Assembly: GCA_039683095.1 (NCBI GenBank)
Contig: JBDKSB010000012.1
Location: 92,293 to 156,292, forward strand
DNA: 64,000 nt
Reading direction: 5' to 3'
Origin: Acidobacteriota bacterium
GTDB lineage: Bacteria > Acidobacteriota > Aminicenantia > Aminicenantales > Saccharicenantaceae
Position 1 is the first letter of the stretch. Every line of letters starts with the position of its first letter. The notes beneath the pieces are model-generated. The model worked only from the letters and a program-made list of their open reading frames with translations, made no database searches and had not been told where the DNA came from. The position numbers and the translations under genes were made by a program. Positions 1-13,067 of the stretch are shown here, piece by piece.

Positions 1-2976
1 GCCGCGCAAAAAGCAGACGGGCGGCGTCCCATAGGTGACGCAGCCGGTCTCCCCGACGCCCTCTAGCAGGCCCGTCTCGTCCTCGAACATGTAAAAATAC
101 TTTGCACCGCCCTGGCTCCCGTAGCCTCCCGGCCCCGGCTCCCCGTCGCCGCCGTGCCGGCCGGTCCCCCATCCATTTCCGCCGGACGCGCCGCAGCCGC
201 TGCCGCCGTTGCCCCCGGGCTGGGGGTGGTAGGTCAGCCGCTGGCGGGCGTCGACGACCCGGACGACAAGCTCGACCATGGCCCCGGCGCAGTCCTTGAG
301 GTCCTTGACCCGGAGGTCCGGCCGCTTGCCCTGATAGAGATCGAGGTCGTCCCCGTCCGGCAGGAAGCCGAGGGACTCGAAGAGCATGCGTCGCTTCTCG
401 TCCGAGGCGATGTCGGCCACCTCCTCCATGTGCTCGAGACCCCGGAAGTAGCGCAGGACCTGGCGCGTCCGCCGCGGCTCGAGCGAGTCGAAGACGCCGG
501 CCTTGATGAGCGTCAGGAGCTCGGCCTTGCCGGGCTTCGTCCGGGCCAGGACGTCCTCGATCGACAGGTACTCGCCGCCCGCCGCCCGCTCGTCGAGGAG
601 GCGCTCGATCGTCTTGAGGCCCAGTCCCTTGATCGAAGCCAGGCCGACGCGGATGGCGCCGTTCTCGACCTCGAAGCCGGCGGCGCTACGGTTGGCGTCG
701 GGCCCGAGGATGCGCAGGCCGTTCCGCTTGGCCTCGGCGACGTACTCCGCGAGCTCGTAGTAGCCGCCGCCGGCGTTGAGCACGGCCGCGAAATAGGCCG
801 CCGGCCGATGGACCTTGAGATAGACGGCCTGGTAGGCCATGGCGGCGTACGAGGCGCTGTGGGCCTTGTTGAAGGAGTAAGAGGAGAACTTCTCCATGGT
901 CTTCCACAGCCGCTCGACGTCAGGCGCGGCGTAGCCGCGCTCGCCGGCCTCGCGGGCGAACTTCGCCCGGAGCGCCGGGTCGCCGCCCCGCCGTTTCTTC
1001 AGGCTCCGCCGCAGCAGGTCGCCTTCCTCAGGGGGCAGGCCGGCCACCCGCTCGGCGATCTGCATGACCTGCTCCTCGTATAGAAGGATGCCGCCGGTCT
1101 CGGGCAGGATGCGGGCCAGGAAGGCGTCGTCGCCGGGCCAGGGCCCGTTCGGCGGGGACGCGGAGCCCTGGGGAGCACTCCCGGGTCTCGCGGCTCCCCG
1201 CCCGCCGCGCCGCCGCAGGAGAGCTTCCTTCATGCCGCTCTCGGTCGGCCCCGGCCGGACCAGGGCCAGGGCCTGGGTGATCTCGTGGATGTCCGCCGGC
1301 TTCATGCGCCGCAGCAGGTTCATCATGGCCGGGCTTTCGACCTGGAAACAGCCGACCGTCCGGGCCGCCCGCAGGGCCGCGTACGTCGCCGGGTCGTCCG
1401 GCGGCAGGCTCCCCAGCCGGAGCTTCTCCTTCGTCTCCGAGATGGCCGCCAGGCCCCGCACCGAGAGGAGATCGAGCTTGATAAGCCGCAGGTCCTCGAC
1501 CGCGTCCTTGTCGAAGTGGGTCATGCGCAGGCCCTTGGCCGAGGTTTCGAGGGGCAGGTAGCGCTCGACCGGCCCGGGGGTCAGGATGACGCCGCCGACG
1601 TGGAGCGAGATCTCGTGGTAGACGTCCTGGAGCTCCGCGGCCAGCTTCCAGGCCTCGAGCCGGCCCGGGGCCGGGGCGGCCAGCCGCAGGCTCGACGGCT
1701 CGGCGAAATACGGCACGCGCTTCGACTGGCTCCGGGCCTCCTCGGGCGGCGCGCCGAAGGCCCGGAGCGTCTCGTAGATGGCCGAGCGGCCCCCGAAATC
1801 CTTCAGCGAGCAGACGTAGGCCGCGCCGGTCCGGCCCGCGCCGTAGCGCTCGAGGACGTAGGCCAGGACCTCGTCGCGGCGCCGCGAGTCGAAGTCGATG
1901 TCGATATCGGGCGGATCGGGCCGGCCGCGGTTGAGGAAGCGCTCGAAATAGAGGTCGAACTCCAGGGGGTTGACGTGGGAGATGCCGAGGAGCCAGGCCA
2001 GGAAGGACGAGGCCCCCGAGCCCCGCAGGTTGTGGAGGATGCCGCGGCGGCGGGCGAACTCGACGATGTCGTGGACGACGAGGAAGTACGGCCCGAAGCC
2101 CGACTGCTCGACCGCCGCCAGCTCGCGCCGGGCCCGCTGGCGCTCCTTCCAGGTCAGGCTCGGCGCGGCGGCCAGCCGCTCCGTGACGGCCTGGCGCAGG
2201 GTCCGGGAAAAGAGATCGGCCGGCAGGCTGGGGACGACGTTCTCGAAGACGAACGAGCATTTCCCGGTGACCTCGAACGTCCGGGCCAGGGCCTCCTTGG
2301 CGGCCTCGCCGAAGCGGCGCGCGGCCAGGGCGTCCTGGTCCGGGCCGAAGAGACTGACCTGGCCCAGGAGCCGGTCGCGTTCCGGCGGGAACGGGACCTT
2401 GTCCTCGATGGCGTGGAGAAGGATGAGGCGCTCCGGGCTGGTCAGGTACTTGACCGGGTTGGCCCAGACGACGGGCAGATCGGCGAAAGGCGAAGGGAAA
2501 TGGGGGACGTGTCCCCCATTTTCCGGTCCCCCGTTCTCCAGGATCCGCTCGAAGTTCCCGAAGTCCGCCCCGATGTACAGATCGCCCGGGGCGAGTTTCT
2601 CGCGCAGGTCGGCCAGCATGGCGGCCTCGGCGTCCCCGTTCCCCGCGTCCCCCTCCGGGACGTAGATCGCGATGAGCCCCGACGCGTCGCGGACCTCCCG
2701 GCGGTTGAAGATCTCCATGAGGTTCGAGTAGCCCTCGCGCTCCTTGACCATGAAGACGAACCGCCGCCCCCCGATCTCGAGCTCGCAGCCGAAGACGGGC
2801 CTGAACCCGGCCGCCGGGGCGATGCGCTTCCACTTGCCCCAGCCGTAGATGTTGCCGATATCGGCAAGGGCCGCGGCCGCGAGCCGCTTGCCGCGGGCCC
2901 AGGCGGCCGCCTCCTCGAGCGTGACGCTGCCCTTCCCCCGGCTGTAGACCGAATGAAGGCGGAGCGGCGTGAACAT
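1..2976 (-). CDS. dnaE2: Error-prone DNA polymerase III alpha subunit DnaE2, partial; C-terminus lies beyond the window start
   Basis: Hand translation of minus strand from ATG at 2976 gives ~990 aa with no stop. PHP-like N-terminus (LRLHSVYS...GKGSV). Pol III alpha hallmark FNKAHSASYAAMAYQAVYLKVHRPAAYFAAVLN. RBS GAGAGGAG upstream. Missing from ORF track because it has no in-window stop. Confidence 0.85.
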   Translation of the reverse strand, partial: MFTPLRLHSVYSRGKGSVTLEEAAAWARGKRLAAAALADIGNIYGWGKWKRIAPAAGFRPVFGCELEIGGRRFVFMVKEREGYSNLMEIFNRREVRDASGLIAIYVPEGDAGNGDAEAAMLADLREKLAPGDLYIGADFGNFERILENGGPENGGHVPHFPSPFADLPVVWANPVKYLTSPERLILLHAIEDKVPFPPERDRLLGQVSLFGPDQDALAARRFGEAAKEALARTFEVTGKCSFVFENVVPSLPADLFSRTLRQAVTERLAAAPSLTWKERQRARRELAAVEQSGFGPYFLVVHDIVEFARRRGILHNLRGSGASSFLAWLLGISHVNPLEFDLYFERFLNRGRPDPPDIDIDFDSRRRDEVLAYVLERYGAGRTGAAYVCSLKDFGGRSAIYETLRAFGAPPEEARSQSKRVPYFAEPSSLRLAAPAPGRLEAWKLAAELQDVYHEISLHVGGVILTPGPVERYLPLETSAKGLRMTHFDKDAVEDLRLIKLDLLSVRGLAAISETKEKLRLGSLPPDDPATYAALRAARTVGCFQVESPAMMNLLRRMKPADIHEITQALALVRPGPTESGMKEALLRRRGGRGAARPGSAPQGSASPPNGPWPGDDAFLARILPETGGILLYEEQVMQIAERVAGLPPEEGDLLRRSLKKRRGGDPALRAKFAREAGERGYAAPDVERLWKTMEKFSSYSFNKAHSASYAAMAYQAVYLKVHRPAAYFAAVLNAGGGYYELAEYVAEAKRNGLRILGPDANRSAAGFEVENGAIRVGLASIKGLGLKTIERLLDERAAGGEYLSIEDVLARTKPGKAELLTLIKAGVFDSLEPRRTRQVLRYFRGLEHMEEVADIASDEKRRMLFESLGFLPDGDDLDLYQGKRPDLRVKDLKDCAGAMVELVVRVVDARQRLTYHPQPGGNGGSGCGASGGNGWGTGRHGGDGEPGPGGYGSQGGAKYFYMFEDETGLLEGVGETGCVTYGTPPVCFLRG

Positions 2977-2995
2977 GGCGCGTCCCCCGCTCCTC

Positions 2996-4258
2996 TCATT
3001 TCGTCAGCGACGCCGTCTTGAGGACGTAGCCCCGCCGCGGGTCGAAGGCGTAGACGCCGTCGAGCATCTTCTCCCGGGCCGTCAGCACCGCGCCGAAGCC
3101 GTACTTGTCGCGGACCTTGTCGATGGCCCCGCCCAGCCGCTCCGGCCGTTCCGAGTAGGGCTCGAAAAGGGCCAGGGGCCGGACGCGCACCAGGTCCGCG
3201 GCCTTGACCCCGACCAGGCGCAGGGCCAGCCGCGAGCCCTCGACGAGCTCGAGGAACAGCTCCTCGGCGACCTTGTAGATCTTGCCCATCTCCTGGAGCG
3301 GCGAGAGCATCAGGCGGCGCTTGATCTCGGTCTTGAAGTCGGCGTAGCGGGCCTTGACCTCGATGACGTGGGCGTAGAGCCGGTCCTCGCGCAGGGCCAG
3401 TGTCAGCCGGTCGCAAAGGTAGGCCAGGTGGGCCAGGAGCAGGCGGCGGTCCCAGAGGTCCTCGAGGAAGGTCGTCTCGCGCGAGACCGACTTGGGCAGG
3501 GTCGGCGCGACCAGGGGCCGGCTGTCGATGCCGCGCGACTGGAGGTAGATGTCGTCGCCGGCCTCGCCGAAGAGCGTGTGCAGGGTCCCCCGCGGCAGCT
3601 CCCAGAGCTGGCCGATCGTGTGGACGCTCATCAGCCGCAGGACGACCTGGGCCTTGGGGCCGATGCCGGGCAGGGCCTCGATGCCGAGGTCGCGGAGGTA
3701 GTCCCGCTCCTCGCCTTCGCGGATCTCGAAGAAGCCGGCCGGCTTGGCCCGGCGGGTGGCCAGCTTGGCCAGGATCTTGTTCGGCGCCGCCCCGGCCGAG
3801 ACCGTGACCCCGATCTCGCCCTCGACCCGCCGCTTGAGCTCGCGGGCCGCGTCCACGAACGAGGGGTAGATGTGGCCGCAGCGGGCGAGGTCCAGGTAGG
3901 CCTCGTCGAGCGAGGCCTCCTCGACGTCCGGGGTGGCGGCGTGGAGGACGCGGAAGAAGCGCTCGGAGAAGGCTTGGTAGACCTGGTAGTTGCCGCGGAG
4001 GAAGACGCCCTCGGGGCAGAGCTTATAGCATTCGCGGAGGGGCATGCCGGAGTGGACGCCGAACTTGCGGGCCTCGTAGGAGCAGGTCGAGGCCACGCCC
4101 CGTTCGTGGGCCAGGCCGCCGACGATGACCGGCTTGCCCGCGAGCGAGGGGTCGAGCAGGACCTCGACGGAGGCGAAAAAGGCGTCGATGTCGACGTGGA
4201 CGATGTAGCGCCGCGGCCGTTCTTTCGACAAAGACACCTCTGCTTCCCTTTCTCGCAC
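2996..4258 (-). CDS. dinB: Y-family DNA polymerase (DinB/Pol IV-like) with catalytic acidic residues intact
   Basis: N-terminal VDIDAFFASVE and SLDEAYLD motifs, identical to the catalytic D, D and E motifs of Pol IV. 420 aa. Lies immediately between lexA and dnaE2. Confidence 0.85.
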   Translation of the reverse strand: MREREAEVSLSKERPRRYIVHVDIDAFFASVEVLLDPSLAGKPVIVGGLAHERGVASTCSYEARKFGVHSGMPLRECYKLCPEGVFLRGNYQVYQAFSERFFRVLHAATPDVEEASLDEAYLDLARCGHIYPSFVDAARELKRRVEGEIGVTVSAGAAPNKILAKLATRRAKPAGFFEIREGEERDYLRDLGIEALPGIGPKAQVVLRLMSVHTIGQLWELPRGTLHTLFGEAGDDIYLQSRGIDSRPLVAPTLPKSVSRETTFLEDLWDRRLLLAHLAYLCDRLTLALREDRLYAHVIEVKARYADFKTEIKRRLMLSPLQEMGKIYKVAEELFLELVEGSRLALRLVGVKAADLVRVRPLALFEPYSERPERLGGAIDKVRDKYGFGAVLTAREKMLDGVYAFDPRRGYVLKTASLTK

Positions 4259-4275
4259 GGTCCGATTCCCTTTTT

Positions 4276-4319
4276 CTCCCCTTCCGCGAAGGGGAGCGTG
4301 ATCTCGGGGGTCTCCCCCG
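4276..4319. other. Two adjacent GC-rich palindromes between lexA and dinB (CTCCCCTTCCGCGAAGGGGAG and CGGGGGTCTCCCCCG)
   Basis: Perfect inverted repeats read directly in the lexA-dinB intergenic region. Could be an attenuator/terminator or a protein-binding site. Confidence 0.3.
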
Positions 4320-4320
4320 T

Positions 4321-4947
4321 TCAGTACTTTCTCATGACGCCGATGACCCGGCCCAGGATCCTGGCCGAGGGCGCCTCGATCGGCTGGAAGGCCGGGTTCT
4401 CCGGGACGAGGAAGACCCGGCCGTCGGCCCGGCGCAGGCGTTTGAGCGTGACCGAGCCGTCGTCGAGCATGGCCACGACCATCTCGCCCGAGTTGGCCAT
4501 GTTGGTCCGCTCGAGCAGGACGTGGTCGCCGTCGTCGATGTAGGCGTCGATCATGCTCTTGCCGTCGACCCGGATGCAGAAGACGTTGCCCCGGCGGCGG
4601 CCGACCATCCAGCCCGGCACGTCCATGGCCTCGCCGGTCGTGTCGAACGACTCGCGCGGCCCGCCGGCGGGGACGAGCCCGGCCACCGGCACCCGGACCT
4701 GGCTCTCGACCAGGGCCGGGAGGCCCTTCACCCGGATCTCGCCGTCCTCGCGGCTGATGTAGCCCTTGCGCTCCAGGCTCTGGAGGTGCTTGAGGACGGC
4801 CGAGGGGCTGGGGATCTTCAGGGCCGCCCCCAGCTGGCGGATGGTCGGGGCGTAGCCGTGCCCGAGGACGAACTCCTCGACGGCCTCGAGGACCTTGGCC
4901 TGCCGGACGGTCAGCTCGCGTCTCAGCGTGTTTACCATTTTGTTCAC
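4321..4947 (-). CDS. lexA: LexA repressor (S24 peptidase family)
   Basis: Winged-helix N-terminus, cleavage-site region VAGLVPAGGP, and Ser/Lys dyad region GDHVLLER...KRL. 208 aa. Confidence 0.9.
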   Translation of the reverse strand: MNKMVNTLRRELTVRQAKVLEAVEEFVLGHGYAPTIRQLGAALKIPSPSAVLKHLQSLERKGYISREDGEIRVKGLPALVESQVRVPVAGLVPAGGPRESFDTTGEAMDVPGWMVGRRRGNVFCIRVDGKSMIDAYIDDGDHVLLERTNMANSGEMVVAMLDDGSVTLKRLRRADGRVFLVPENPAFQPIEAPSARILGRVIGVMRKY

Positions 4948-5020
4948 CTTTTAAAAAATAAGCCTGCCGCGGGCGTTTGTCAAGAGGAAATCGAACGAAA
5001 GGGAAAGAATGCCCCGGGAT

Positions 5021-5948
5021 CAGTCAAGCGTCCATTGTAGCGAAAAGGCCAGGACCTCAGGGAAGCCGCTGGGCTTCTCCCGGACGCAATAGAGGCGGTC
5101 GTTCTTGATAATGACGTCCCGCAGGGGTGGCCCGAGCTGGAGCCTCTGATAGCCCAGGGCTGTTCTGAGGACGCGAACGCCGCCCGGCGAGAACATGTCG
5201 CAGACGCCGGCGCCTGTCGCCTGGTTTTGCCCGTATCCGACGGCACAGAGCCGGTCATGATCGTCTGCCAGGAGGGCCAGGAACGGCGGGAATGTTCTTG
5301 GGAAGGCGAGGTTCCTCCAGAACGGGTGGTCCGGGGGGAGCGAATGGAGGCCTCACGGAATCCGTGAGGGACGTCGATCGCCGGATAGTCCGCCAGGATC
5401 TTGCGGATCAGGCGGCCGCTCAAGTCATAGACTTCGATCTCGCGACTCGAGGCCATGGACGTCAAGAAAAAGGAGGTTCGCGAAACCGCGACCAGGGGAA
5501 AATCGATGAAGGGGGTCTTGAGCTCGTCCTCGGCCGGAACGGGATACGCCTTCAGCTCTCGCCGCCTGGAAAAATCCGGACCGAACAGGCCGACGCCGTA
5601 TGAGGAAAATTCGAGAGTCTCCGGTTTCACCCGCACATAGGCAATGACATAATCCCCGTTGGCGAGCGGCAGGAAGCCGTGCGGAAAGGGAAAAAGGAGG
5701 TCCGGCAGGGCGACCGCGCGAACCACCGTCCCCTCCGCATTGAAGAACAGGACCTTCCGGCCGCCCAGGCTGACCACAGGGATCTCTCCCCCGGCATTCA
5801 GCCGCATGAACCGGGGATTCTGCACCTCTCCGGGCCCCTGGCCGATAGGGCAAAATGAGCGCACGGACCGGCCGCGGTCGTCGAACACGAAAACGGTATT
5901 CCCCGGCGTCGCGCCGCGCCGGGTGGTGTTCGCCGGCCCGCTGGGCAT
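5021..5948 (-). pseudogene. Six-bladed beta-propeller (NHL/TolB-like) gene with frameshift in a G6 homopolymer tract; N-terminus and signal peptide absent
   Basis: ORF 4980..5948 reads as credible propeller sequence for ~215 aa then turns to junk. Shifting +1 at the GGGGGG run (5333-5338) restores a credible C-terminus: ...NLAFPRTFPPFLALLADDHDRLCAVGYGQNQATGAGVCDMFSPGGVRVLRTALGYQRLQLGPPLRDVIIKNDRLYCVREKPSGFPEVLAFSLQWTLD, stopping at 5021. Confidence 0.6.
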
Positions 5949-6198
5949 CCACGGCCTGACGGTCGTCGTGGATCATGGCCTGGGGTTGTTCAGTATGTAT
6001 TGTCATTTGAGCCGGATCGATGTCGCGTTGTCCCAGGGCGTGACGCGGGGCGAAACGCTCGGGCTTTCGGGGTCCACGGGCCTGGCCGGCGGCGACCATC
6101 TCCATTTCGCCATGCTCGTCCACGGGACGTTCGTCAATCCCGTGGAATGGTGGGATGCCCACTGGATCCGCGACAACGTCGAGCTCAAGACGAGATGA
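5917..6198 (+). pseudogene. 3' remnant of an M23 (LytM-type) peptidase gene, only the C-terminal ~95 aa
   Basis: VVFAGPLGIHGLTVVVDHGLGLFSMYCHLSRIDVALSQGVTRGETLGLSGSTGLAGGDHLHFAMLVHGTFVNPVEWW matches the M23 C-terminal core including the HxH zinc motif. Upstream in-frame sequence is junk. Overlaps the propeller fragment on the opposite strand. Confidence 0.6.
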
Positions 6199-6279
6199 TG
6201 CGGCCATGACCGAACCGGGACCCGTCGGCGTCTTTGATTCGTGATCTGGCGGCCTGAACGTTTTCCGGGAAATCACGGC

Positions 6280-6394
6280 CTTGACTTCTCCGCCGGCTAT
6301 CGGCTACATTCCGGCCATCGCTAATCCCCGCCACAGGAGAGCAGAGAGCCCTGGACATCAAGGATGTCATCGACATCCGCTTATCCATCCGGGC
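6280..6394 (+). repeat. Direct repeat copy 1 (~115 bp): degenerate copy of the nitroreductase promoter plus 5' coding region, start codon mutated to CTG
   Basis: cttgacttctccgccggctatcggctacattcc...aatccccgccacaggag...ggacatcaagga(t/c)gtcatc...atccatccgggc is shared with 7923-8038 at roughly 85% identity. Confidence 0.8.
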
Positions 6395-6592
6395 TGAGCG
6401 GAGAAAGGAAGACGATCTCGTCGAAACGCCGCGTGATCTGGTTCACGAGGCGATGCTGTTCGGCCACGTCAACGACGGCGTCGCCGGCGTCGATGCCGGC
6501 TCTCAGATCACCTGCCTGGGCCAGGGCGCCGAGAGGATGAGGCCGCAGGTTGCATGAAGGCTAGCCAAAGAAACGGAGTGAGGGTTACTAAA

Positions 6593-7627
6593 ATGAATAA
6601 GAACCTCTGCTTGGCTATTTTCGGGATCCTGATAAGTGCTTCCATTTATGATGCCGCCATAGCACAAGAGATCAGCAGCCAGGAAATAAACTTTGAATAT
6701 TTATGGAACACATTCGATAAAAAGTATGCTCTATTTGTCCCCAAGAGAGTTGACTGGGATGCGTTGTACAGGATTTATCGGCCAAAGATATCCTCTCAGA
6801 CTTCAGAAACTGAACTCTTTGACATTATGGCCGCCTTGCTTAGCCACTTGAATGACAATCACGTCCGGTTAGAGTCTCCAAATCGTTCTTTCCGGTCGGG
6901 CGTTTTGGGTGCGATGCCACCGATGGATGATTTCTTTCCTCTCATCAAAACCAAATATCTTCATGGGTACAAAGATCGTGCTGCTGGCATGTTTTCCGGT
7001 TGGTTAACAGATTCCATCGGTTATTTTCATATCCAGTATTTTGAGAACGTGGAACAGAGCTCCGATGTCATCGACCAAATTCTTTATGAGTTTAAGGATG
7101 CAAAAGGAATTGTTATCGATGTTCGCGAAAACTACGGAGGCGACGACGAGGTCGGCAAGACAATCGCCGATCGTTTCGCCGACAAAAAGCGTTTGTATAT
7201 GCTGAAGCGTTGCAAGAATGGCAATGGGCATAATGACTTTGGCCCGCCTCAAAAATGGTATGTGGAACCGGAAGGACCTATTCAATACACCAAGCCTGTG
7301 ATCCTTCTCATCAATCGTTTCTCTGTCAGTGAAGCCGAGGTTTTCACTTTGGCCATGCGCGCATTGCCTCAGGTTACGGTTATTGGGGATGCGACTTCAG
7401 GTGTTTTTGCTGATGTTGATAAGGATATTCTTCCTAACGGCTGGACATTTAGGTGTCCATATAACCTTATTGAAGACGCCGCGGGCTTTTGTTGGGAAGG
7501 AATAGGGATTCCGGCAGATCTTCATCAAACGATTTCACAAGAAGATATTGCCGGCGGACATGAGAGGGTTCTTGACCTGGCAATAGCATTTTTAAACGCA
7601 AATAAACGCGCCGCGATTCGAAAATAA
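6593..7627 (+). CDS. S41-family C-terminal processing peptidase with signal peptide; low-GC, horizontally acquired
   Basis: Signal peptide [25 protein letters not shown]. Motifs [13 protein letters not shown] and [17 protein letters not shown]...VIGDATSG match the S41 catalytic region. GC about 40% against ~70% flanks. Alternative start at 6554. Confidence 0.8.
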
Positions 7628-7896
7628 TGACATTGCAGCCGATGCTGCGGGAACATCACGGATATGTCCGATCCTACGACGCGGTACGGCGGCATGTCCG
7701 GACGCGCTTTCCGGAGTTTTGCCGGAAGGGGGCTCAGCAGATGACCCCGGTGGCCGGCGCGATCGCGCGTCGGGCCCAGCCGTTGCCGATCGCTCCGAAG
7801 CTCAAGTTCCTCTTCGTGGCGCCGCCCGCGGTGGCCGGCTCGTTCGGGCTCGCTTGGCTGCTCACCCATGTCCCCGGGATCAAACGCGTCCTCTGA
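7627..7896 (+). CDS. Hypothetical small protein (89 aa), high-GC, inside the inserted segment
   Basis: ORF with native-like codon usage between the S41 gene and repeat copy 2. No recognisable family. Could be a gene remnant. Confidence 0.2.
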
Positions 7897-7922
7897 TCCT
7901 CGGGCCGCAACGAAACCGACAT

Positions 7923-8038
7923 CTTGACTTCTCCGCCGGCTATCGGCTACATTCCGACTGTTCGCCAATCCCCGCCACAGGAGACGAGAAGACCATGGAC
8001 ATCAAGGACGTCATCTACACCCGCCGATCCATCCGGGC
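7923..8038 (+). repeat. Direct repeat copy 2: functional promoter and first ~15 codons of the nitroreductase gene
   Basis: See copy 1. Contains TTGACT, an 18-bp spacer and TACATT, followed by ATG at 7995. Confidence 0.8.
7924..7953 (+). promoter_or_regulatory. Sigma70-like promoter (TTGACT, 18-bp spacer, TACATT) for the nitroreductase gene
   Basis: Read directly from sequence. About 40 bp upstream of ATG at 7995. Duplicated in degenerate form at 6281. Confidence 0.5.
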
Positions 8039-8561
8039 CTATGAGAGCAAGCCCGTCGACCGCGGCCTGATCCAGCAGGTGATCGAGGCCGCCGTGCAGG
8101 CGCCGTGCGGCATGGGCATCGAGCCCTGGAAGTTCGCCGTCATCCAGGACCGCGGGATCCTGGCCGACCTGTCCGGCCGGACGAAAGCCCACATGCTCGG
8201 CCTGATCGACCAGGTGCCGCCGCTCGCGAGGTACCGGGAGACGTTCGAGAGCCCTGAGTTCAACGTCCTCTACGGCGCGCCCGTGCTGGTCCTCATCTGC
8301 CGTTCGACGCAGAATCCAAGCCCGACGGCCGACATCGACTGCGCCCTGGCCGCCGAGAACCTGATGCTCGCGGCCCGCAGCCTCGGTCTCGGCACGTGCT
8401 GGATGGGCTTCGTGGGAACATACCTCAAGACCGACGAGGCCAAGAAGCGTTTCGGCATCCCGGAGGACCACCAGGTCGTGGCGGCGATCGCCGCCGGCTA
8501 TCCGGCCGTCGAGTTCACGACCAAGGCCAGGAATCCCCCGGCGATGATCTTCTGGAAATAG
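7995..8561 (+). CDS. Nitroreductase family protein
   Basis: [21 protein letters not shown]...WKFAVIQD matches the nitroreductase N-terminal signature. 188 aa. Confidence 0.8.
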
Positions 8562-8816
8562 CCGCCGATGGCACGGACCGGTGCCAAGACCGGTGTTGAC
8601 ATCTATCCGCGTCCGGACGGGAAACGCCGAATGCGGCCCGGAATTGTGCCCGGCCCTCGAAAAGGCGCAATCCGTCTGGGACGGCGTTCCGAAAATCGCC
8701 GAGACCCTGTCGCGCGCCGACTTCGAAGCCTACGCTCAGCCCTACTGCGGCCGCCGCCTCCGCCTCGCGGCGAAGCAAGCCGCCCGACCCTGACCGGAGA
8801 TTCCGGGGCCGGCCGC

Positions 8817-10004
8817 TTATTCGGTCAGGGCGCCGGAATATTTCAAGACCCTTCGATTCGGAGGGGCGTAGAAGGTTCCGGGATTGGACGTATAAACGGC
8901 GCCTTCAAAAACCCCTTCGTTGCCGCCGGCGAATTTATGGGGCTCGGCCGCGCCCTTGGGGACCAGGACAAGCTGTCGCTTGAAGTCGCGGCGGTAGGAA
9001 CGCTGGTCGTCGCCGATCTTGAAGTAAAAAGCGTTCCGCAGGATGAACGGCTTCCATTCGGCGCAGACGGCCGTTTCCGGAACGCATCGGACGGGCTTGT
9101 CGGCGGCGAAGGCCGCCTGCAGCTCGAGGCCGCTGAGAGGGACGCCGTCGAGCTCTCCGATCGTTCCGTATTGGGCGTCGGCCAGGACCCATTTATGGAA
9201 TTGCTCCAGCCAGACCTCGACGGCGGAATGGGCCTCGCTCCGTGTTTCCACGTCCCGGGGGAGCAGGTTGAGCACCCGCGCGGGCATCCCGTAGGCCTTG
9301 GCGACTCCGGCCAGGACGACGGCGTAGTCCCGGCAGATGAAACGGCCGCCTGCCTTGGCCTCCCGGAGGATCGTCAGCGGGTCGGTTTTCGAGGCTGTCT
9401 GGTCCGAGCTGTGTTCCCACCGCGTGCTGACCCATGCCGTCAGGCGGCGCAGTCTCTCGTAATCGTCCTTGGAACCGGCGATGACCGCGTCGATCGAGAA
9501 TTCCTTCCGCATCGCCGCGAATTCCGGGGTCTCCGGACCGTCGAACGTCAGATCGAACGGCGGTGGCGTCTGAGTTTCGTCCCAGGCCAGCGGACGGGGG
9601 CCGAATCGGGATTTCAGGTCGGCGAGGAAGGCCTTGAATTCCGGATCCGCGCGCAGGGAATCCAGATCGGAATCCGCGGCATACTTATCGTAATCCGTGT
9701 ATCCGGCTCCGACGGCCTCGCGGGCGGCCGCGATGGCGCGCGATTTCTCACCGGAGAGCGCAAGGACGCAGGCTTTATTGTAAAGGATGCCGGCCTTGAT
9801 CAGAGGGTCCCCGGCGCTCGCCGCGAGACCCATCTGACGTTCCAGGACGTTAAGGGCCCCGCTCCAGTTCCCCGCTTTGACGCATCGGGCCAGCTCTTCG
9901 TTCGTGGACCGGAACTGGTCCTCCAGGGACGCCTGCCCGGCGGCGGCCAGGCAGAGGCAGGCGGACATCAGGCCAACTGCGATCATTTTTTCGACGAGGC
10001 GCAT
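8817..10004 (-). CDS. Secreted transglutaminase-like cysteine protease superfamily protein
   Basis: Signal peptide. GRFICRDYAVVLAGVAKAYGMPARVL matches the transglutaminase-core Cys motif, with downstream His (EAHSAVEVW) and Asp. Confidence 0.65.
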   Translation of the reverse strand: MRLVEKMIAVGLMSACLCLAAAGQASLEDQFRSTNEELARCVKAGNWSGALNVLERQMGLAASAGDPLIKAGILYNKACVLALSGEKSRAIAAAREAVGAGYTDYDKYAADSDLDSLRADPEFKAFLADLKSRFGPRPLAWDETQTPPPFDLTFDGPETPEFAAMRKEFSIDAVIAGSKDDYERLRRLTAWVSTRWEHSSDQTASKTDPLTILREAKAGGRFICRDYAVVLAGVAKAYGMPARVLNLLPRDVETRSEAHSAVEVWLEQFHKWVLADAQYGTIGELDGVPLSGLELQAAFAADKPVRCVPETAVCAEWKPFILRNAFYFKIGDDQRSYRRDFKRQLVLVPKGAAEPHKFAGGNEGVFEGAVYTSNPGTFYAPPNRRVLKYSGALTE

Positions 10005-10159
10005 GGGACCTCCTCTAAGGGTACTCCTTTATGAACGAAGAACAGCCATAAAAGGTTGTCGAAGGAAAGCCGCGAGATATTATCAAATCTATTTATATCA
10101 TTGTAATCAGCAAGTTGCGGCTCCTGGCCCGGCCAAGCCGGGCTAAGCCCCCGAAACTG

Positions 10160-10168
10160 TGGTATAAT
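10160..10168 (+). promoter_or_regulatory. Extended -10 promoter element TGGTATAAT for the RRM protein gene
   Basis: TGnTATAAT consensus read directly. Implies a ~165-nt 5' UTR before ATG at 10337. Confidence 0.45.
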
Positions 10169-10336
10169 GGTGCTGTTCATTAGCAAAGGGAAACCTCAGC
10201 TATCAACACCTGAATGACTAAAGGAAGGGGCCAGAGGCCCTGATCGGTTTCGTACTCCTCTCCTTTACGGCGTTCAAACATCTTTAAGAACCGGGAAGGC
10301 TCGGGAGAGTCTTTCCATCGTCGAAAGGAGACGAGA

Positions 10337-10624
10337 ATGAACATCTATGTGGGTAACCTATCCACCACCGTCAACGAGAACGACCTGAGGGAAGTCTTCC
10401 AGGCGTTCGGCGCGGTCTCGACGGCCGCCGTCATCAAGGACAAGTTCAGCGGGGAATCCCGCGGCTTCGGCTTCGTCGAGATGCCGAACAAGGACGAGGC
10501 CGATAAGGCCATCTCCATGGTCAACGGCAAGGACCTGAAGGGCCGCGCGGCCAAGGTCAACGAGGCCAAGCCCCGGACGAGCTCGACGCGGTCCGGCGGC
10601 GGTTTCGGCGCCCGGCGGTACTAA
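10337..10624 (+). CDS. RRM-type RNA-binding protein (glycine-rich tail)
   Basis: RNP-2 motif IYVGNL, RNP-1 motif RGFGFVEM, C-terminal GGGFGARRY. Confidence 0.9.
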   Translation: MNIYVGNLSTTVNENDLREVFQAFGAVSTAAVIKDKFSGESRGFGFVEMPNKDEADKAISMVNGKDLKGRAAKVNEAKPRTSSTRSGGGFGARRY

Positions 10625-10667
10625 GACCCCCGGAGAGTCCGGGGTCGCAAACATACGACTCCACAAA

Positions 10668-10699
10668 GGGAGCGGCCATCCGGCCGCTCCCTTTTTTTA
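10668..10699 (+). terminator. Rho-independent terminator (GGGAGCGGCC...GGCCGCTCCC followed by T7)
   Basis: 10-bp perfect stem followed by TTTTTTT, immediately after the RRM gene. Confidence 0.8.
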
Positions 10700-10736
10700 T
10701 TCTTCTCCCGATTTAGGGATATTTTCGAGCCGGGAA

Positions 10737-10797
10737 AATGGGGACGTTTCCATTTTTTCCGGATCGGGGTTTTGGGAAAAACAGAAACGTCCCCATT
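10737..10797. other. Long hairpin (14-bp perfect stem AATGGGGACGTTTC / GAAACGTCCCCATT, ~33-nt loop with internal TTTTTCC/GGAAAAA pairing)
   Basis: Read directly. Located in the convergent gap between the RRM gene and icd. On the minus strand it sits just 3' of icd, so it is probably the icd terminator or a structured element. Confidence 0.4.
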
Positions 10798-10835
10798 ATC
10801 CCCCGACGGCAGACGTCCGGCGAAAACGCCGTGTC

Positions 10836-13067
10836 TTAGAGCGCGTCGATGATCGCGTTCAACGCCGCGCACGGCCGCATGGCCGCCGCGAGCTTTTCTT
10901 GGTCCGGGTGGTAGTAGCCGCCCATGTCGACAGGCTTGCCCTGGACCGCGATCAGGCCGGCGTCGATCTCGGCCGCCTTCTCTCCCAGGGCCCTGGCCAC
11001 CGGCGCGAACCGGGCCCTGAGCTCCTGGTCCTTGTCCTGGGCGGCCAGGGCCTCGGCCCAGTAGAGGGCCAGGTAGAAGTGGCTGCCCCGGTTGTCGATC
11101 TGGCCGACCTTGCGGGCCGGCGACTTGCCGTTGTCCAGGAACTTGCCGATGGCCGCGTCGAGGGCCTCGGCCAGGACCTTGGCCTTGTCGTTCTTGAACG
11201 CGCCGGCCAGGTACTCGAGCGAGGCGGCAAAGGCCGAGAACTCCCCGAGCGAGTCCCAGCGCAGGTAATTCTCCTTCTTGAACTGCTGGACGTGCTTCGG
11301 CGCCGAGCCGCCAGCGCCCGTCTCGAAAAGCCCGCCGCTGGCCAGCAGGGGCACGATCGACAGCATGTAGGCGCTGGCGCCGATCTCGAGGATCGGGAAG
11401 AGATCGGTCAGGTAGTCGCGCAGGACGTTCCCGGTGACCGAGATGGTGTCCTGGCCCTTGCGGATGCGCTCGAGGGAGTACTTCATGGCCTCGACAGGCG
11501 GCATGATCTTGATCGTCAGCCCCGTCGTATCGTGGCCCTTGAGATACTCCTCGACCTTGGCGATGACCTGGACGTCGTGGGCCCGGCCGCGGTCCAGCCA
11601 GAAGACCGCCGGGGCGCCGGTCGCCCTGGCCCTTTTGACCGCCAGCCCGACCCAGTCCCGGATCGGGATGTCCTTGGCCCGGGACAGGCGCCAGACGTCG
11701 CCGGCTTCGACCGCGTGCTCCATGAGGACCCGGCCGCCGGCGGCGACCACCCGGACCGTGCCGTCGAAGGGGATCTCGAAGGTCGTCGGGTGGGAGCCGT
11801 ATTCCTCGGCCTGTTGCGCCATCAGCCCGACGTTCGGGACGCTGCCCATGGAGGCCCGGTCGAAAGCGCCGTGCTGCCGGCAGTCCTCGATGATCGTCTT
11901 GTAGATCGTCGAGTAGCAGCGGTCCGGGATCATGGCCTTGGTCTCATGGAGCTTCCCGTCCGGGCCCCACATCCGCCCCGACTCGCGGACGACGACCGGC
12001 ATGGAGGCGTCGACGATGACGTCGCTCGGGACGTGCAGGTTGGTGATCCCGTGGTCGGAATCGACCATGGCCAGCGGGGGCCGCGCGGCATAGACGGCCT
12101 TGATGTCGGCCTCGATCTCGGCCTGCTTGGCCTCGGGCAGGGCCTTGATCTTGGCGTAGAGGTCGCCGAGGCCGTTGTTGGGATTGAAGCCGCACTCCCT
12201 GAGCGCAGCGGCGTGCTTGGTCAGGGCCGGCTCGAAGAAGACCGAAACGGCGTGGCCGAAGAGGATGGGATCGGAAACCTTCATCATGGTCGCCTTGAGG
12301 TGGAGCGACAGCAGCAGGCCCCCGGCCCTGGCGTCCTCGATCTGGGAGGCGTAGAAGGCCCGCAGGGCTTTCTTGCTCATGAAGGTCCCGGACAGGATCT
12401 CGCCGTCGAGCGCGGTCAGTTCGTCCTTGAGGACCTTGACCCCGCCGTCACGGCCCTGGATCTCGATCCGGAAACCGACGCCCTGGCCCACGGTCACGGA
12501 CTTCTCGTTGCCGTAGAAGTCGCCGCCGGTCATGTGGGCGACGTGGGCCTTGGACTCCTGGGTCCAGGGGCCGAGGGGGAGCATCTTCGCGGGGTTCTTC
12601 TGGGCATACTTTTTGACCGAAACGGGGGCCCTCCGGTCGGAGTTCCCCTGGCGCAGGACCGGGTTGACGGCGCTGCCCAGGACCTTGGCGTAGCGGGCCT
12701 GGATCTCCTTCTCAGCCTCGGTCTTGGGGATCTCGGGATAGTCGGGAACCTTGTAGCCCTGCGACTGGAGCTCGGCGACGGCCTCCAGCAACTGGGGCAG
12801 CGAAGCGCTGATGTTCGGCAGCTTGATGATGTTGGCCTCGGGCTTCAGGGCCAGCTCGCCCAGGAAGGCCAGGTTGTCGGGCAGGCGCTGGGCCTCGGTC
12901 AGGCAGTCGGGGAAGTTGGCGATGATGCGGCCGGCGAGCGAGATGTCGCTCTTTTCGACCTCGATCCCCGTCCCCTTGGTGAATCCCCGGATGATCGGAA
13001 AAAGCGAATAGGTGGCCAGGTACGGCGCTTCGTCGGTTTCCGTCCAGTAGATCTTGCGGGCGGTCAT
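10836..13067 (-). CDS. icd: Monomeric NADP-dependent isocitrate dehydrogenase
   Basis: 743 aa. Characteristic monomeric-IDH sequence throughout. Confidence 0.9.

Follow-up and report, generated by a model that had tools for sequence, protein, structure and literature searches.

Results

Layout of the locus

In the 64-kb window (the whole stretch of DNA analysed here), which belongs to an uncultured, Aminicenantes-like member of the Acidobacteriota, two truncated genes on opposite strands abut each other 5' of an SOS mutagenesis cluster. On the minus strand lies a pseudogene of a DUF5128/NHL-type six-bladed beta-propeller lipoprotein (5020–5922, stop codon at 5020–5022), which corresponds to codons 89–389 of an intact ortholog. 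On the plus strand lies the 3' remnant of an M23 metallopeptidase gene (5923–6198, stop codon at 6196–6198). Immediately downstream of the propeller pseudogene and on the same strand is lexA [4321–4947; Pfam LexA_DNA_bind and Peptidase_S24; TIGR00498, 167.9 bits (cutoff 110.95)], and then dinB, encoding DNA polymerase IV [2996–4258, minus strand; Pfam IMS, IMS_C and IMS_HHH_1; PRK02406, 298.7 bits (cutoff 256)]. The assignment of dnaE2, beyond dinB, is by synteny with locus L002, whose product has PHP, DNA_pol3_alpha and related domains; the one ORF of this stretch that was tested (1028–2833) gave no Pfam match. From their sequences lexA and dinB look intact, and so does dnaE2 to the extent that the window shows it. 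Because lexA keeps a promoter-like site of its own (4955–4983, TTGACA-17-TATTTT, 10/12 matches), the SOS cluster should be unaffected by the lesions beside it. The first-pass annotation had placed the decaying genes downstream of lexA-dinB-dnaE2; in the direction of transcription they are upstream (5') of lexA.

The propeller pseudogene

Intact orthologs of the propeller gene encode 389–397 residues and are up to 94% identical to the remnant. A tblastn search with one of them (P0001) aligns residues 89–283 and 281–387 in two different frames (94% identity, E 9e-152), and alignment with ortholog DNA reveals that the first 88 codons (the 5' 263 nt) are missing, including the lipoprotein signal, the start codon and the promoter. 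A conserved region of ~170 nt upstream of the intact genes (L008, L012, L013 and L016) is also deleted in the window, and the promoter-like scan found no site left upstream of the remnant. The two-frame alignment and the 88 missing codons bear out the earlier description of a gene that is frameshifted and has lost its 5' end and signal peptide; the window copy has neither an uninterrupted frame nor an N-terminal lipoprotein signal. The overlap claimed between its first codons and the M23 gene on the opposite strand holds for the ORFs, although it arises only through a chance ATG (5946–5948) that lengthens the propeller frame by nine codons into antisense M23 sequence. In the deposited annotation the frameshifted ORF is a 275-aa 'hypothetical protein' (MEN6560763.1).

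With its frame repaired, the remnant scores 22.3 bits against Pfam DUF5128, for which the gathering cutoff is 22.9; intact orthologs pass (P0001, 33.1 bits; P0003, 28.0 bits). The six-bladed propeller fold was tested on the predicted structure of the ortholog P0001 rather than on the remnant: the AlphaFold model (pLDDT 82.4, pTM 0.83) has NHL domains as its top PDB matches, and the family profile matches the NHL domains of TRIM2/3/71 (E 1e-19; TRIM2 NHL, E 1.6e-19). Among the changes unique to the window lineage, seven are non-synonymous and five synonymous, too few for significance, and three alter alignment positions that are ≥ 90% conserved (Y315C, V270I and V381A). By sequence, this pattern fits relaxed constraint, with a dN/dS signal that is too small to reach significance.

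What breaks the frame is the loss of 4 bp, AGAT when read along the gene, between plus-strand positions 5350 and 5351, as judged against six intact orthologs (L002, L008, L009, L012, L013 and L016). At the lesion the window reads GAGG----CCTCC where the orthologs all have GAGGAGATCCTCC; the six carry GAGGAGATC(C/T)TCC, and the window carries GAGGCCTCC, as does the Logan contig L001 discussed below. The first-pass annotation had instead attributed a +1 shift to the G6 run at 5333–5338 (C6 in gene orientation), 12 nt from the lesion. This run is of wild-type length, as the same six bases, CGCTCCCCCCG, are found in four of the intact orthologs (L002, L012, L013 and L016), and the two alternatives offered at the time, a phase-variable slipped-strand site and a homopolymer sequencing error, fall with it. 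Slippage, phase variation and homopolymer miscalling are ruled out because the lesion is a 4-bp deletion and the run is unchanged. A nearby homopolymer is thus not to be presumed the cause of a frameshift; here it was ortholog comparison that located the lesion. Restoring the frame would not rescue the gene, which has lost promoter, start codon and signal peptide alike.

The M23 peptidase remnant

Of the M23 gene the last 92–93 of ~431 codons survive (including the stop), close to the ~95 codons (5917–6198) first proposed. The remnant matches positions 23–96 of the 96 in Pfam PF01551 [65.8 bits (cutoff 28.7), E 4e-18] and is 88–93% identical to the orthologous products P0046 and P0047. Full-length orthologs (L010, 97–1397; L016, 4683–5982) encode ~431–433 residues with the M23 domain at residues 319–413. 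Whilst the HxH motif (GGDHLHF) is retained, the HxxxD motif (HLGVD in L010) is encoded upstream of the breakpoint in the orthologs and is absent from the window, leaving an incomplete zinc site in an incomplete gene. The N-terminal membrane/signal segment, start codon and promoter are likewise missing. Homology to the orthologs stops at the stop codon (6198), beyond which the sequences diverge. The rest of the 64-kb window yielded neither a full-length M23 gene nor a further copy of the M23 or the propeller gene; the mis-assembled full-length M23 gene that the first-pass annotation had named as counter-evidence to its reading did not come to light there.

The junction

The window was aligned with both the M23 orthologs (L010 and L016) and the propeller orthologs (L008, L012 and L016). 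Propeller homology stops and M23 homology starts inside the pentanucleotide GCCGG at 5918–5922, a microhomology of 4–5 nt: GCCGG is common to the L016 M23 gene and, as the reverse complement, to the propeller genes of L008, L012 and L016, and the L010 M23 gene matches over 4 nt. The rearrangement breakpoint predicted at 5900–5950 thereby narrows to a single breakpoint. In L016 a full M23 gene (4683–5982, minus strand) is divergent from an intact propeller gene (beginning at 10001), with ~4 kb between them; one deletion in such a layout can therefore account for the join.

The interval between the IDH and propeller genes

Beyond the M23 stop codon the window contains further gene fragments. The stretch 6280–6396 (plus strand) was identified by repeat search, alignment, promoter-like scan and BLAST self-match as a duplicate of the promoter-like site and first ~14 codons of a nitroreductase gene, in which CTG has replaced the ATG start codon; its first 34 nt are identical to 7923–7956 and the rest is ~77–86% identical. 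The source or partner of this fragment is the intact nitroreductase gene at 7995–8561 (plus strand; PF00881, E 9e-32; promoter-like site at 7924–7953), the product of which has 82% amino-acid identity to that of L016 3876–3313. Between the two lies an intact S41 peptidase gene (6554–7627, plus strand; Pfam Peptidase_S41 and Tricorn_C1) with a signal-like N-terminus. Its GC content in the composition profile is 45%, against 66% for the window, and it has 89% nucleotide identity to L033 over 6567–7621 only, where the sequence is low in GC too; it is a gene-sized foreign insertion inside the scar region. The 3' remnant of an Acyl_transf_3 gene follows (7745–7896, plus strand; BLAST matches to L010 2391–2542 and L014 7332–7470); this gene stands after M23 in L010, according to the precomputed gene call there, and near the isocitrate dehydrogenase (IDH) gene in L014 (Pfam on L014 7319–8431).

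No homolog in the fetched loci and no Pfam match was found for a 55-aa minus-strand peptide (6400–6560) or for the segments 6199–6279, 6397–6553 and 7628–7744. A resemblance to murI at 6207–6280 (VGVFDS*SGGLNVFREI) is put down to chance, with no Pfam match at E ≤ 1 and no relative carrying murI at this place. The scans found no tRNA in 1–20 000, no Rfam match in 1–14 000, no recombinase domain among the ORFs tested and no terminal repeats, and the only long direct repeat found is the nitroreductase promoter duplicate. In what was scanned, the region thus showed no hallmark of an integrative mobile element, be it an integrase or transposase, a tRNA or att repeats, or terminal inverted repeats at the boundaries. 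The presence of two M23 3' copies in L016 had raised the idea of an element that targets the M23 3' end; it was rejected, as the fragment there lies 5' rather than 3' of the complete gene and is accompanied by no recombinase.

The content of the IDH-to-propeller interval differs among the window, L002, L010, L012, L013, L014 and L016. The first-pass view of the locus as recombination-active is borne out by this variation, and that of a zone of gene decay by the two truncated remnants.

Discussion

A probable deletion scar with two dead genes

The locus is probably a real deletion scar bearing two non-functional gene remnants. The direct ancestor would have had the layout still seen in the related Aminicenantes genome L016, with the M23 gene and the NHL-type propeller gene divergent and with the propeller gene followed by lexA, dinB and dnaE2 on the same strand. 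Two GCCGG sites, one ~280 nt before the end of the M23 gene and the other 263 nt into the propeller gene, would then have recombined illegitimately through their microhomology, with the loss of everything in between: ~1 kb of the M23 gene, both promoters and start codons, any intervening genes and the propeller signal peptide. The junction was presumably made by one such deletion and not by several events. A separate loss of AGAT, whether later or earlier, would have shifted the frame of the leftover propeller sequence. Neither remnant can yield a working protein, and neither is likely to be expressed, although gene callers still place ORFs on both.

None of the relatives examined has the layout expected just before the deletion; the M23 and propeller genes are divergent in L016, ~4 kb apart, but in the relatives closest by sequence, L012 and L008, the propeller gene is preceded by a different small gene and M23 is absent from that place, so the junction could stem from an insertion or replacement. 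On this account a patchwork of DNA, either foreign or relocated (~5923–7956), would have been joined to the propeller gene by illegitimate recombination and have overwritten its 5' end; the patchwork would comprise the S41 gene, the 3' ends of the M23 and acyltransferase genes and the 5' piece of the nitroreductase gene. The M23 gene would then never have been resident here at full length. It would explain why M23 homology ends on both sides (at 5922/5923 and just past the stop at 6198), why the adjoining pieces are likewise short and sharp-edged, and how the clearly foreign S41 gene belongs among them. However, the M23, nitroreductase, RRM and acyltransferase genes neighbour each other in the IDH-to-propeller interval of L016, L010 and L014, and for that reason the fragments look like resident genes eroded in place; nor was any integrase, transposase, tRNA or terminal repeat seen. 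We regard such a replacement as unlikely, if worth keeping in mind.

An artefact, that is a chimeric join combined with a 4-bp consensus error, has to be weighed because the window derives from a metagenome-assembled genome (a contig of 1.29 Mb) and because indel errors are probably present in related long-read assemblies, where the propeller gene of L016 is split between two frames and the M23 gene of L010 has a frameshift. The separate Logan contig L001 (SRR15035646) is identical to window positions 2130–6309 (4180 bases, 100% identity) and covers both lesions; an identical junction from an independent assembler argues against mis-assembly, with the qualification that this cross-sample support is one contig, which may share reads with the metagenome-assembled genome. 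Moreover, the 5 nt shared at the join are too short for a k-mer or overlap mis-join, the loss of four bases from non-repetitive sequence is atypical of homopolymer error, and the G6 run has its expected length. We therefore consider an artefact very improbable. The junction 24-mer CGCGCCGCGCCGGGTGGTGTTCGC was also sought in JGI metagenome contigs; its four matches, none on related contigs, are all due to chance, and the scan is population evidence neither way. A literature search found no paper in which DUF5128, the SRA run or the locus tag is named.

Some amidase activators are LytM-type factors without catalytic residues, and the M23 remnant might in principle be a working small protein of this degenerate kind, translated from a 130–179 aa ORF ending at 6198. 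It has no internal stop, it is 93% identical to one ortholog, one gene caller reports a product of 130 aa, and there is a weak promoter-like match at 5626–5653. On the other hand, the M23 domain has lost its first 22 positions, the HxxxD motif among them, and the whole N-terminal part of ~318 residues has gone together with the hydrophobic, membrane/signal-like segment of the orthologs. Towards its 5' end the ORF consists of propeller sequence read in antisense, and the four promoter-like matches in the region barely exceed the number in shuffled sequence (1.5 ± 1.4). Such a function is scarcely credible.

Least tenable is a phase-variable or programmed-frameshift gene in which slippage at the G6 run toggles the propeller protein: although a one-base shift in that run, so near the frame break, would rejoin the frames, its length is not what breaks them, the 4-bp deletion elsewhere is, and no choice of frame yields a working protein from a gene without start codon, promoter and signal peptide, so that this reading is in practice already refuted.

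The propeller gene as a neighbour of the SOS cluster

In all orthologous loci with a readable downstream flank, down to 60% identity, the propeller gene immediately precedes lexA-dinB-dnaE2 on the same strand. M23 3' fragments are joined upstream of it at different points in the window and in L016, and these joins may be independent. A rather speculative reading, to which we give little credence, is that the propeller gene is a lineage-specific companion of the SOS cluster in Aminicenantes, that the region upstream of it is a hotspot of illegitimate recombination and that the window copy is a natural knockout. If so, the dead copy would indicate that the propeller protein is dispensable to the SOS cluster. 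The comparison of loci shows the IDH-to-lexA interval to be variable in this Aminicenantes clade; that the lipoprotein gene travels with lexA-dinB-dnaE2 is a mild lead, not a finding.

Comparison with known systems

Returning to the probable deletion scar, the two genes are genuine pseudogenes of an ordinary, known kind that meet where a rearrangement joined them, and the value of the result is mainly for annotation: both ORFs deserve a pseudogene flag. They resemble other 5'-truncated and frameshifted bacterial pseudogenes in their clear homology to intact genes of relatives and in their lesions (promoter, start and signal lost, and an indel that shifts the frame), with few other changes, as in recent inactivation. 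There is no essential difference, except that here one junction truncated two divergent genes, which makes the scar easy to read. The 4–5 nt of GCCGG at the join, without mobile-element ends, tRNA or integrase, are as expected for RecA-independent, microhomology-mediated illegitimate recombination; in the present case the deleted interval is deduced from L016, whose M23 and propeller genes are ~93–94% identical to the window remnants. With phase-variable contingency genes, which carry homopolymer tracts, the window shares a G6 run within coding sequence and near the frame break, but it falls outside this class, as tract length does not differ between it and L002, L012, L013 and L016, the break is elsewhere and the gene, with its 5' end absent, is not otherwise intact.

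Compared with the M23/LytM metallopeptidases (MepM/NlpD-like), the remnant keeps the C-terminal two-thirds of the M23 domain and HxH but lacks HxxxD, the N-terminal domain and the export signal, and it is no member enzyme. The predicted fold of P0001 is like the NHL domains of Brat, TRIM2, TRIM3, TRIM71 and Thin (Foldseek probability 1.0, target-normalised TM ~0.6). The bacterial family differs from these solved domains in starting with a signal-like helix and in having an invariant Cys17, a combination that fits a lipoprotein, and the window copy differs from NHL propellers in being a dead remnant.

Two gene remnants on opposite strands

Remnants of two genes, one on each strand, lie in the region 4980-6400. 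The minus-strand ORF at 4980-5948 has about 190 credible codons and then becomes junk; another minus-strand frame gives a credible C-terminus with its stop codon at 5020-5022. When the frame is repaired, this propeller remnant (5020-5922) shows a weak match to DUF5128, '6-bladed beta-propeller' (22.3 bits, slightly below the cutoff of 22.9). The protein collection holds 45 relatives, most with PF17170; the intact ones are 389-397 residues long and the closest, P0001, has 94% identity. In all of them a hydrophobic stretch at the N-terminus precedes an invariant cysteine (Cys17 in P0001), a sequence feature that fits a lipoprotein signal. A 30-member family profile matches the NHL domains of TRIM2, TRIM3, TRIM71, Thin and Brat (E down to 1.6e-19), and the same domains are the best PDB matches of the AlphaFold model of P0001 (pLDDT 82.4, pTM 0.83), which has an N-terminal helix and is all-beta thereafter. 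The DUF5128 family is a genuine propeller; a literature search found no mention of it.

Similarity to P0001 is confined to its residues 89-387 and runs over two frames of the window; thus 88 codons are absent, and the start codon, signal peptide and everything upstream are gone. Because it is out of frame and lacks a promoter, start codon, signal and the N-terminal strands of the fold, the remnant is predicted to be incapable of yielding a working protein. Beyond a 4-bp deletion, no further stop or indel was found in it. The nearest orthologs are at a pairwise dS of 0.07-0.08. Seven non-synonymous and five synonymous changes are unique to the window lineage, three of them in columns at least 90% conserved; this fits a recent loss of constraint, the counts being too small for proof.

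On the plus strand, the final 92-93 codons before the stop at 6196-6198 read as the C-terminus of an M23 metallopeptidase (5923-6198; positions 23-96 of 96 in PF01551, 65.8 bits, E = 4e-18). Its closest proteins share 88-93% identity with it, and one is annotated to a Candidatus Aminicenantales MAG. In related loci the full gene has ~431-433 codons (97-1397 in L010, where the assembly is frameshifted; 4683-5982 in L016), which bears out the first-pass annotation that only the last ~95 codons survive. The M23 domain of full-length relatives spans residues 319-413. The HxH motif (DHLHF) is kept; the zinc motif HxxxD, which reads HLGVD in L010, maps 5' of the breakpoint and is absent. With the export signal and the complete zinc site both missing, this remnant too would be unable to give a working protein. 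Homology with all M23 orthologs also ends directly 3' of the stop codon, so the piece has breakpoints at both ends.

A 4-bp deletion and a microhomology junction

DNA alignment with three orthologous propeller genes reveals a 4-bp deletion (GAGGAGATCCTCC in the orthologs, GAGG----CCTCC in the window), confirmed against six orthologs and located between plus-strand positions 5350 and 5351. The first-pass annotation had put the frameshift at the G6 run 5333-5338 (C6 in gene orientation). Intact orthologs in L002, L012, L013 and L016 have the run at the same length, six bases, and it is therefore not the lesion; a frame correction anywhere nearby, the run included, seems to 'restore' the C-terminus, which accounts for that impression.

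To map the junction, the window was aligned to M23 orthologs and to the reverse complements of propeller orthologs. The propeller match reaches 5922 and the M23 match begins at ~5918-5923, with GCCGG (5918-5922) common to both parent sequences (four bases match in the comparison with L010 M23). The rearrangement breakpoint suspected near 5900-5950 can thus be placed at 5918-5922. The reported overlap of the two genes dissolves, being merely a chance ATG (5946-5948) that adds nine codons of antisense M23 to the propeller frame.

The frameshifted ORF occurs twice in the protein collection, once in the Logan assembly of SRR15035646 and once as MEN6560763.1 ('hypothetical protein ABFD52_08325') from the 1.29-Mb contig of an Acidobacteriota MAG, evidently the one that the window belongs to. 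The Logan contig (4180 bases) is 100% identical to window 2130-6309 and spans both the deletion and the junction, an agreement that may not be independent, since the two assemblies may share reads. A second assembler nevertheless gives both lesions again, a five-base shared sequence cannot make an assembler mis-join, and homopolymer error does not account for the loss of four bases from non-repetitive sequence; these points argue that both are real. No related JGI metagenome contig contained the 24-mer across the junction. In the databases, the frameshifted, truncated ORF (4980-5948) is not marked as a pseudogene but deposited as a hypothetical protein of 275 aa, and on the Logan contig the gene caller predicts a 130-aa 'M23' product over the M23 remnant.

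Origin of the scar

Orthologous loci were drawn from metagenome assemblies and one genome per species; every relative that has a name is a MAG of Aminicenantes or Acidobacteriota. L016 (Candidatus Aminicenantes MFD05942.bin.2.318) has a full-length M23 gene and an intact propeller gene on opposite strands, ~4 kb apart with four ORFs in between. Past M23 come a toxin-antitoxin pair and then nitroreductase and RRM genes matching window 7995-8561 and 10337-10624. In the window both remnants have lost their 5' ends and are directed away from the junction, exactly what a single deletion between divergent genes yields; in an L016-like genome, one deletion from inside M23 to propeller nucleotide 263 would produce the window structure. 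We infer this ancestral layout from L016, since the relatives nearest by sequence, L012 and L008, have a small divergent gene in place of M23. Their lack of M23 beside the propeller gene also speaks for a replacement, in which foreign or relocated DNA overwrote the propeller 5' end; we consider this unlikely.

L016 also carries a 122-nt M23 fragment (9780-9901), ~4 kb from its full M23 gene and ~100 nt upstream of its propeller start (10001). This copy of the 3' end plus downstream sequence abuts the conserved region upstream of the propeller gene and is joined at a different point from the window junction, with microhomology AGGCCCG. A breakpoint ~100-170 nt upstream of the propeller start may be recurrent. 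In L013, a different left flank begins at the spot where the L016 fragment is joined.

L010 M23 (97-1397) and L016 propeller (9989-11169) are each broken over two frames, which calls for caution in comparative use of these loci. Indel errors, not pseudogene formation, probably explain the splits, because both loci seem to come from long-read assemblies (the L016 MAG is from Microflora Danica, 'MFD'). The small divergent gene appears to begin at L012 9478-9624, just upstream of the propeller gene, and L008 has a 20-aa partial call (2-61) at the same position. A ~70-aa plus-strand ORF of the window (8581-8793), downstream of the nitroreductase gene and matching no family, is 76% identical in DNA to L012 9478-9624.

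A variable interval beside a conserved SOS cluster

The first-pass annotation called the locus recombination-active, and the interval between the propeller gene and the monomeric isocitrate dehydrogenase (IDH) gene (10836-13067) agrees: each genome examined has its own content there (L002 has unrelated genes over 9 kb, L012 an interval of 0.6 kb, L014 PRiA4_ORF3 with an acyltransferase, and L010 M23 and an acyltransferase among other genes), and the window holds extra gene fragments. A nitroreductase fragment at 6280-6396 comprises a promoter-like site and the first ~14 codons, the start changed from ATG to CTG. It forms a direct repeat with 7923-8040, on both sides of an S41 peptidase gene; 34 nt (7923-7956), including promoter-like TTGACT-18-TACATT, are identical, and the following ~80 nt are 77-86% identical. 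This sharp drop from 100% to ~80% suggests a recombination or conversion boundary. The last 152 nt (~50 codons) of an Acyl_transf_3 gene remain at 7745-7896; L010 has a full-length copy beside M23, and L014 one near IDH. A spurious 89-aa ORF (7627-7896) encloses this remnant.

The S41 gene is intact (6554-7627) and has 45% GC, against 66% for the genome. Homology to two other contigs, L033 and L035, covers the gene alone (6567-7621; 89% nucleotide identity to L033), and there too the gene is low in GC (43% vs 58%). From its sequence it looks like a single-gene transfer; no recognisable mobile-element ends were seen. A search around the scar for tRNA, Rfam families, terminal repeats and, among the ORFs tested, recombinases found none. 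Three short segments separating the recognisable pieces (6199-6279, 6397-6553 and 7628-7744) resemble nothing in the orthologous loci retrieved. Read on the minus strand, 6400-6560 could plausibly encode the C-terminal 55 aa of a protein (…AGIDAGDAVVDVAEQHRLVNQITRRFDEIVFLSPLSPDG*), for which Pfam gave no match. Between the RRM gene and the IDH end, an inverted repeat (10732-10802), with a 13-nt loop between 29-nt arms of 86% complementarity, is a possible bidirectional terminator.

To the left of the propeller remnant, Pfam identifies LexA and Y-family polymerase genes, with lexA (TIGR00498) and DNA polymerase IV (PRK02406) both over curated cutoffs. The 70-odd bases between remnant and lexA, conserved in L002, contain a strong promoter-like site (TTGACA-17-TATTTT, 4955-4983); since this is retained, lexA-dinB-dnaE2 would be expected to work normally. 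Propeller orthologs (60-95% identity) of Aminicenantes relatives lie directly upstream of and co-oriented with lexA-dinB-dnaE2 in all loci with a readable downstream flank (L002-L007 and L012-L015, propeller at ~10001-11190 with lexA just downstream; window 4321-5922). The adjacency is sometimes interrupted, by a second, 31% identical propeller paralog in L012 and by unrelated ORFs in L013, L014 and L009. Distant paralogs (at most 43% identity, L017-L028) are not beside the cluster. This synteny is the one mildly interesting side point of the locus.

Compared with known systems, the propeller remnant belongs neither to phase-variable loci nor to programmed frameshifts, and the scar is not a mobile-element insertion. 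Such decay of bacterial genes at a junction with microhomology is ordinary; here it affects a variable part of the genome of an uncultured, Aminicenantes-like member of the Acidobacteriota.
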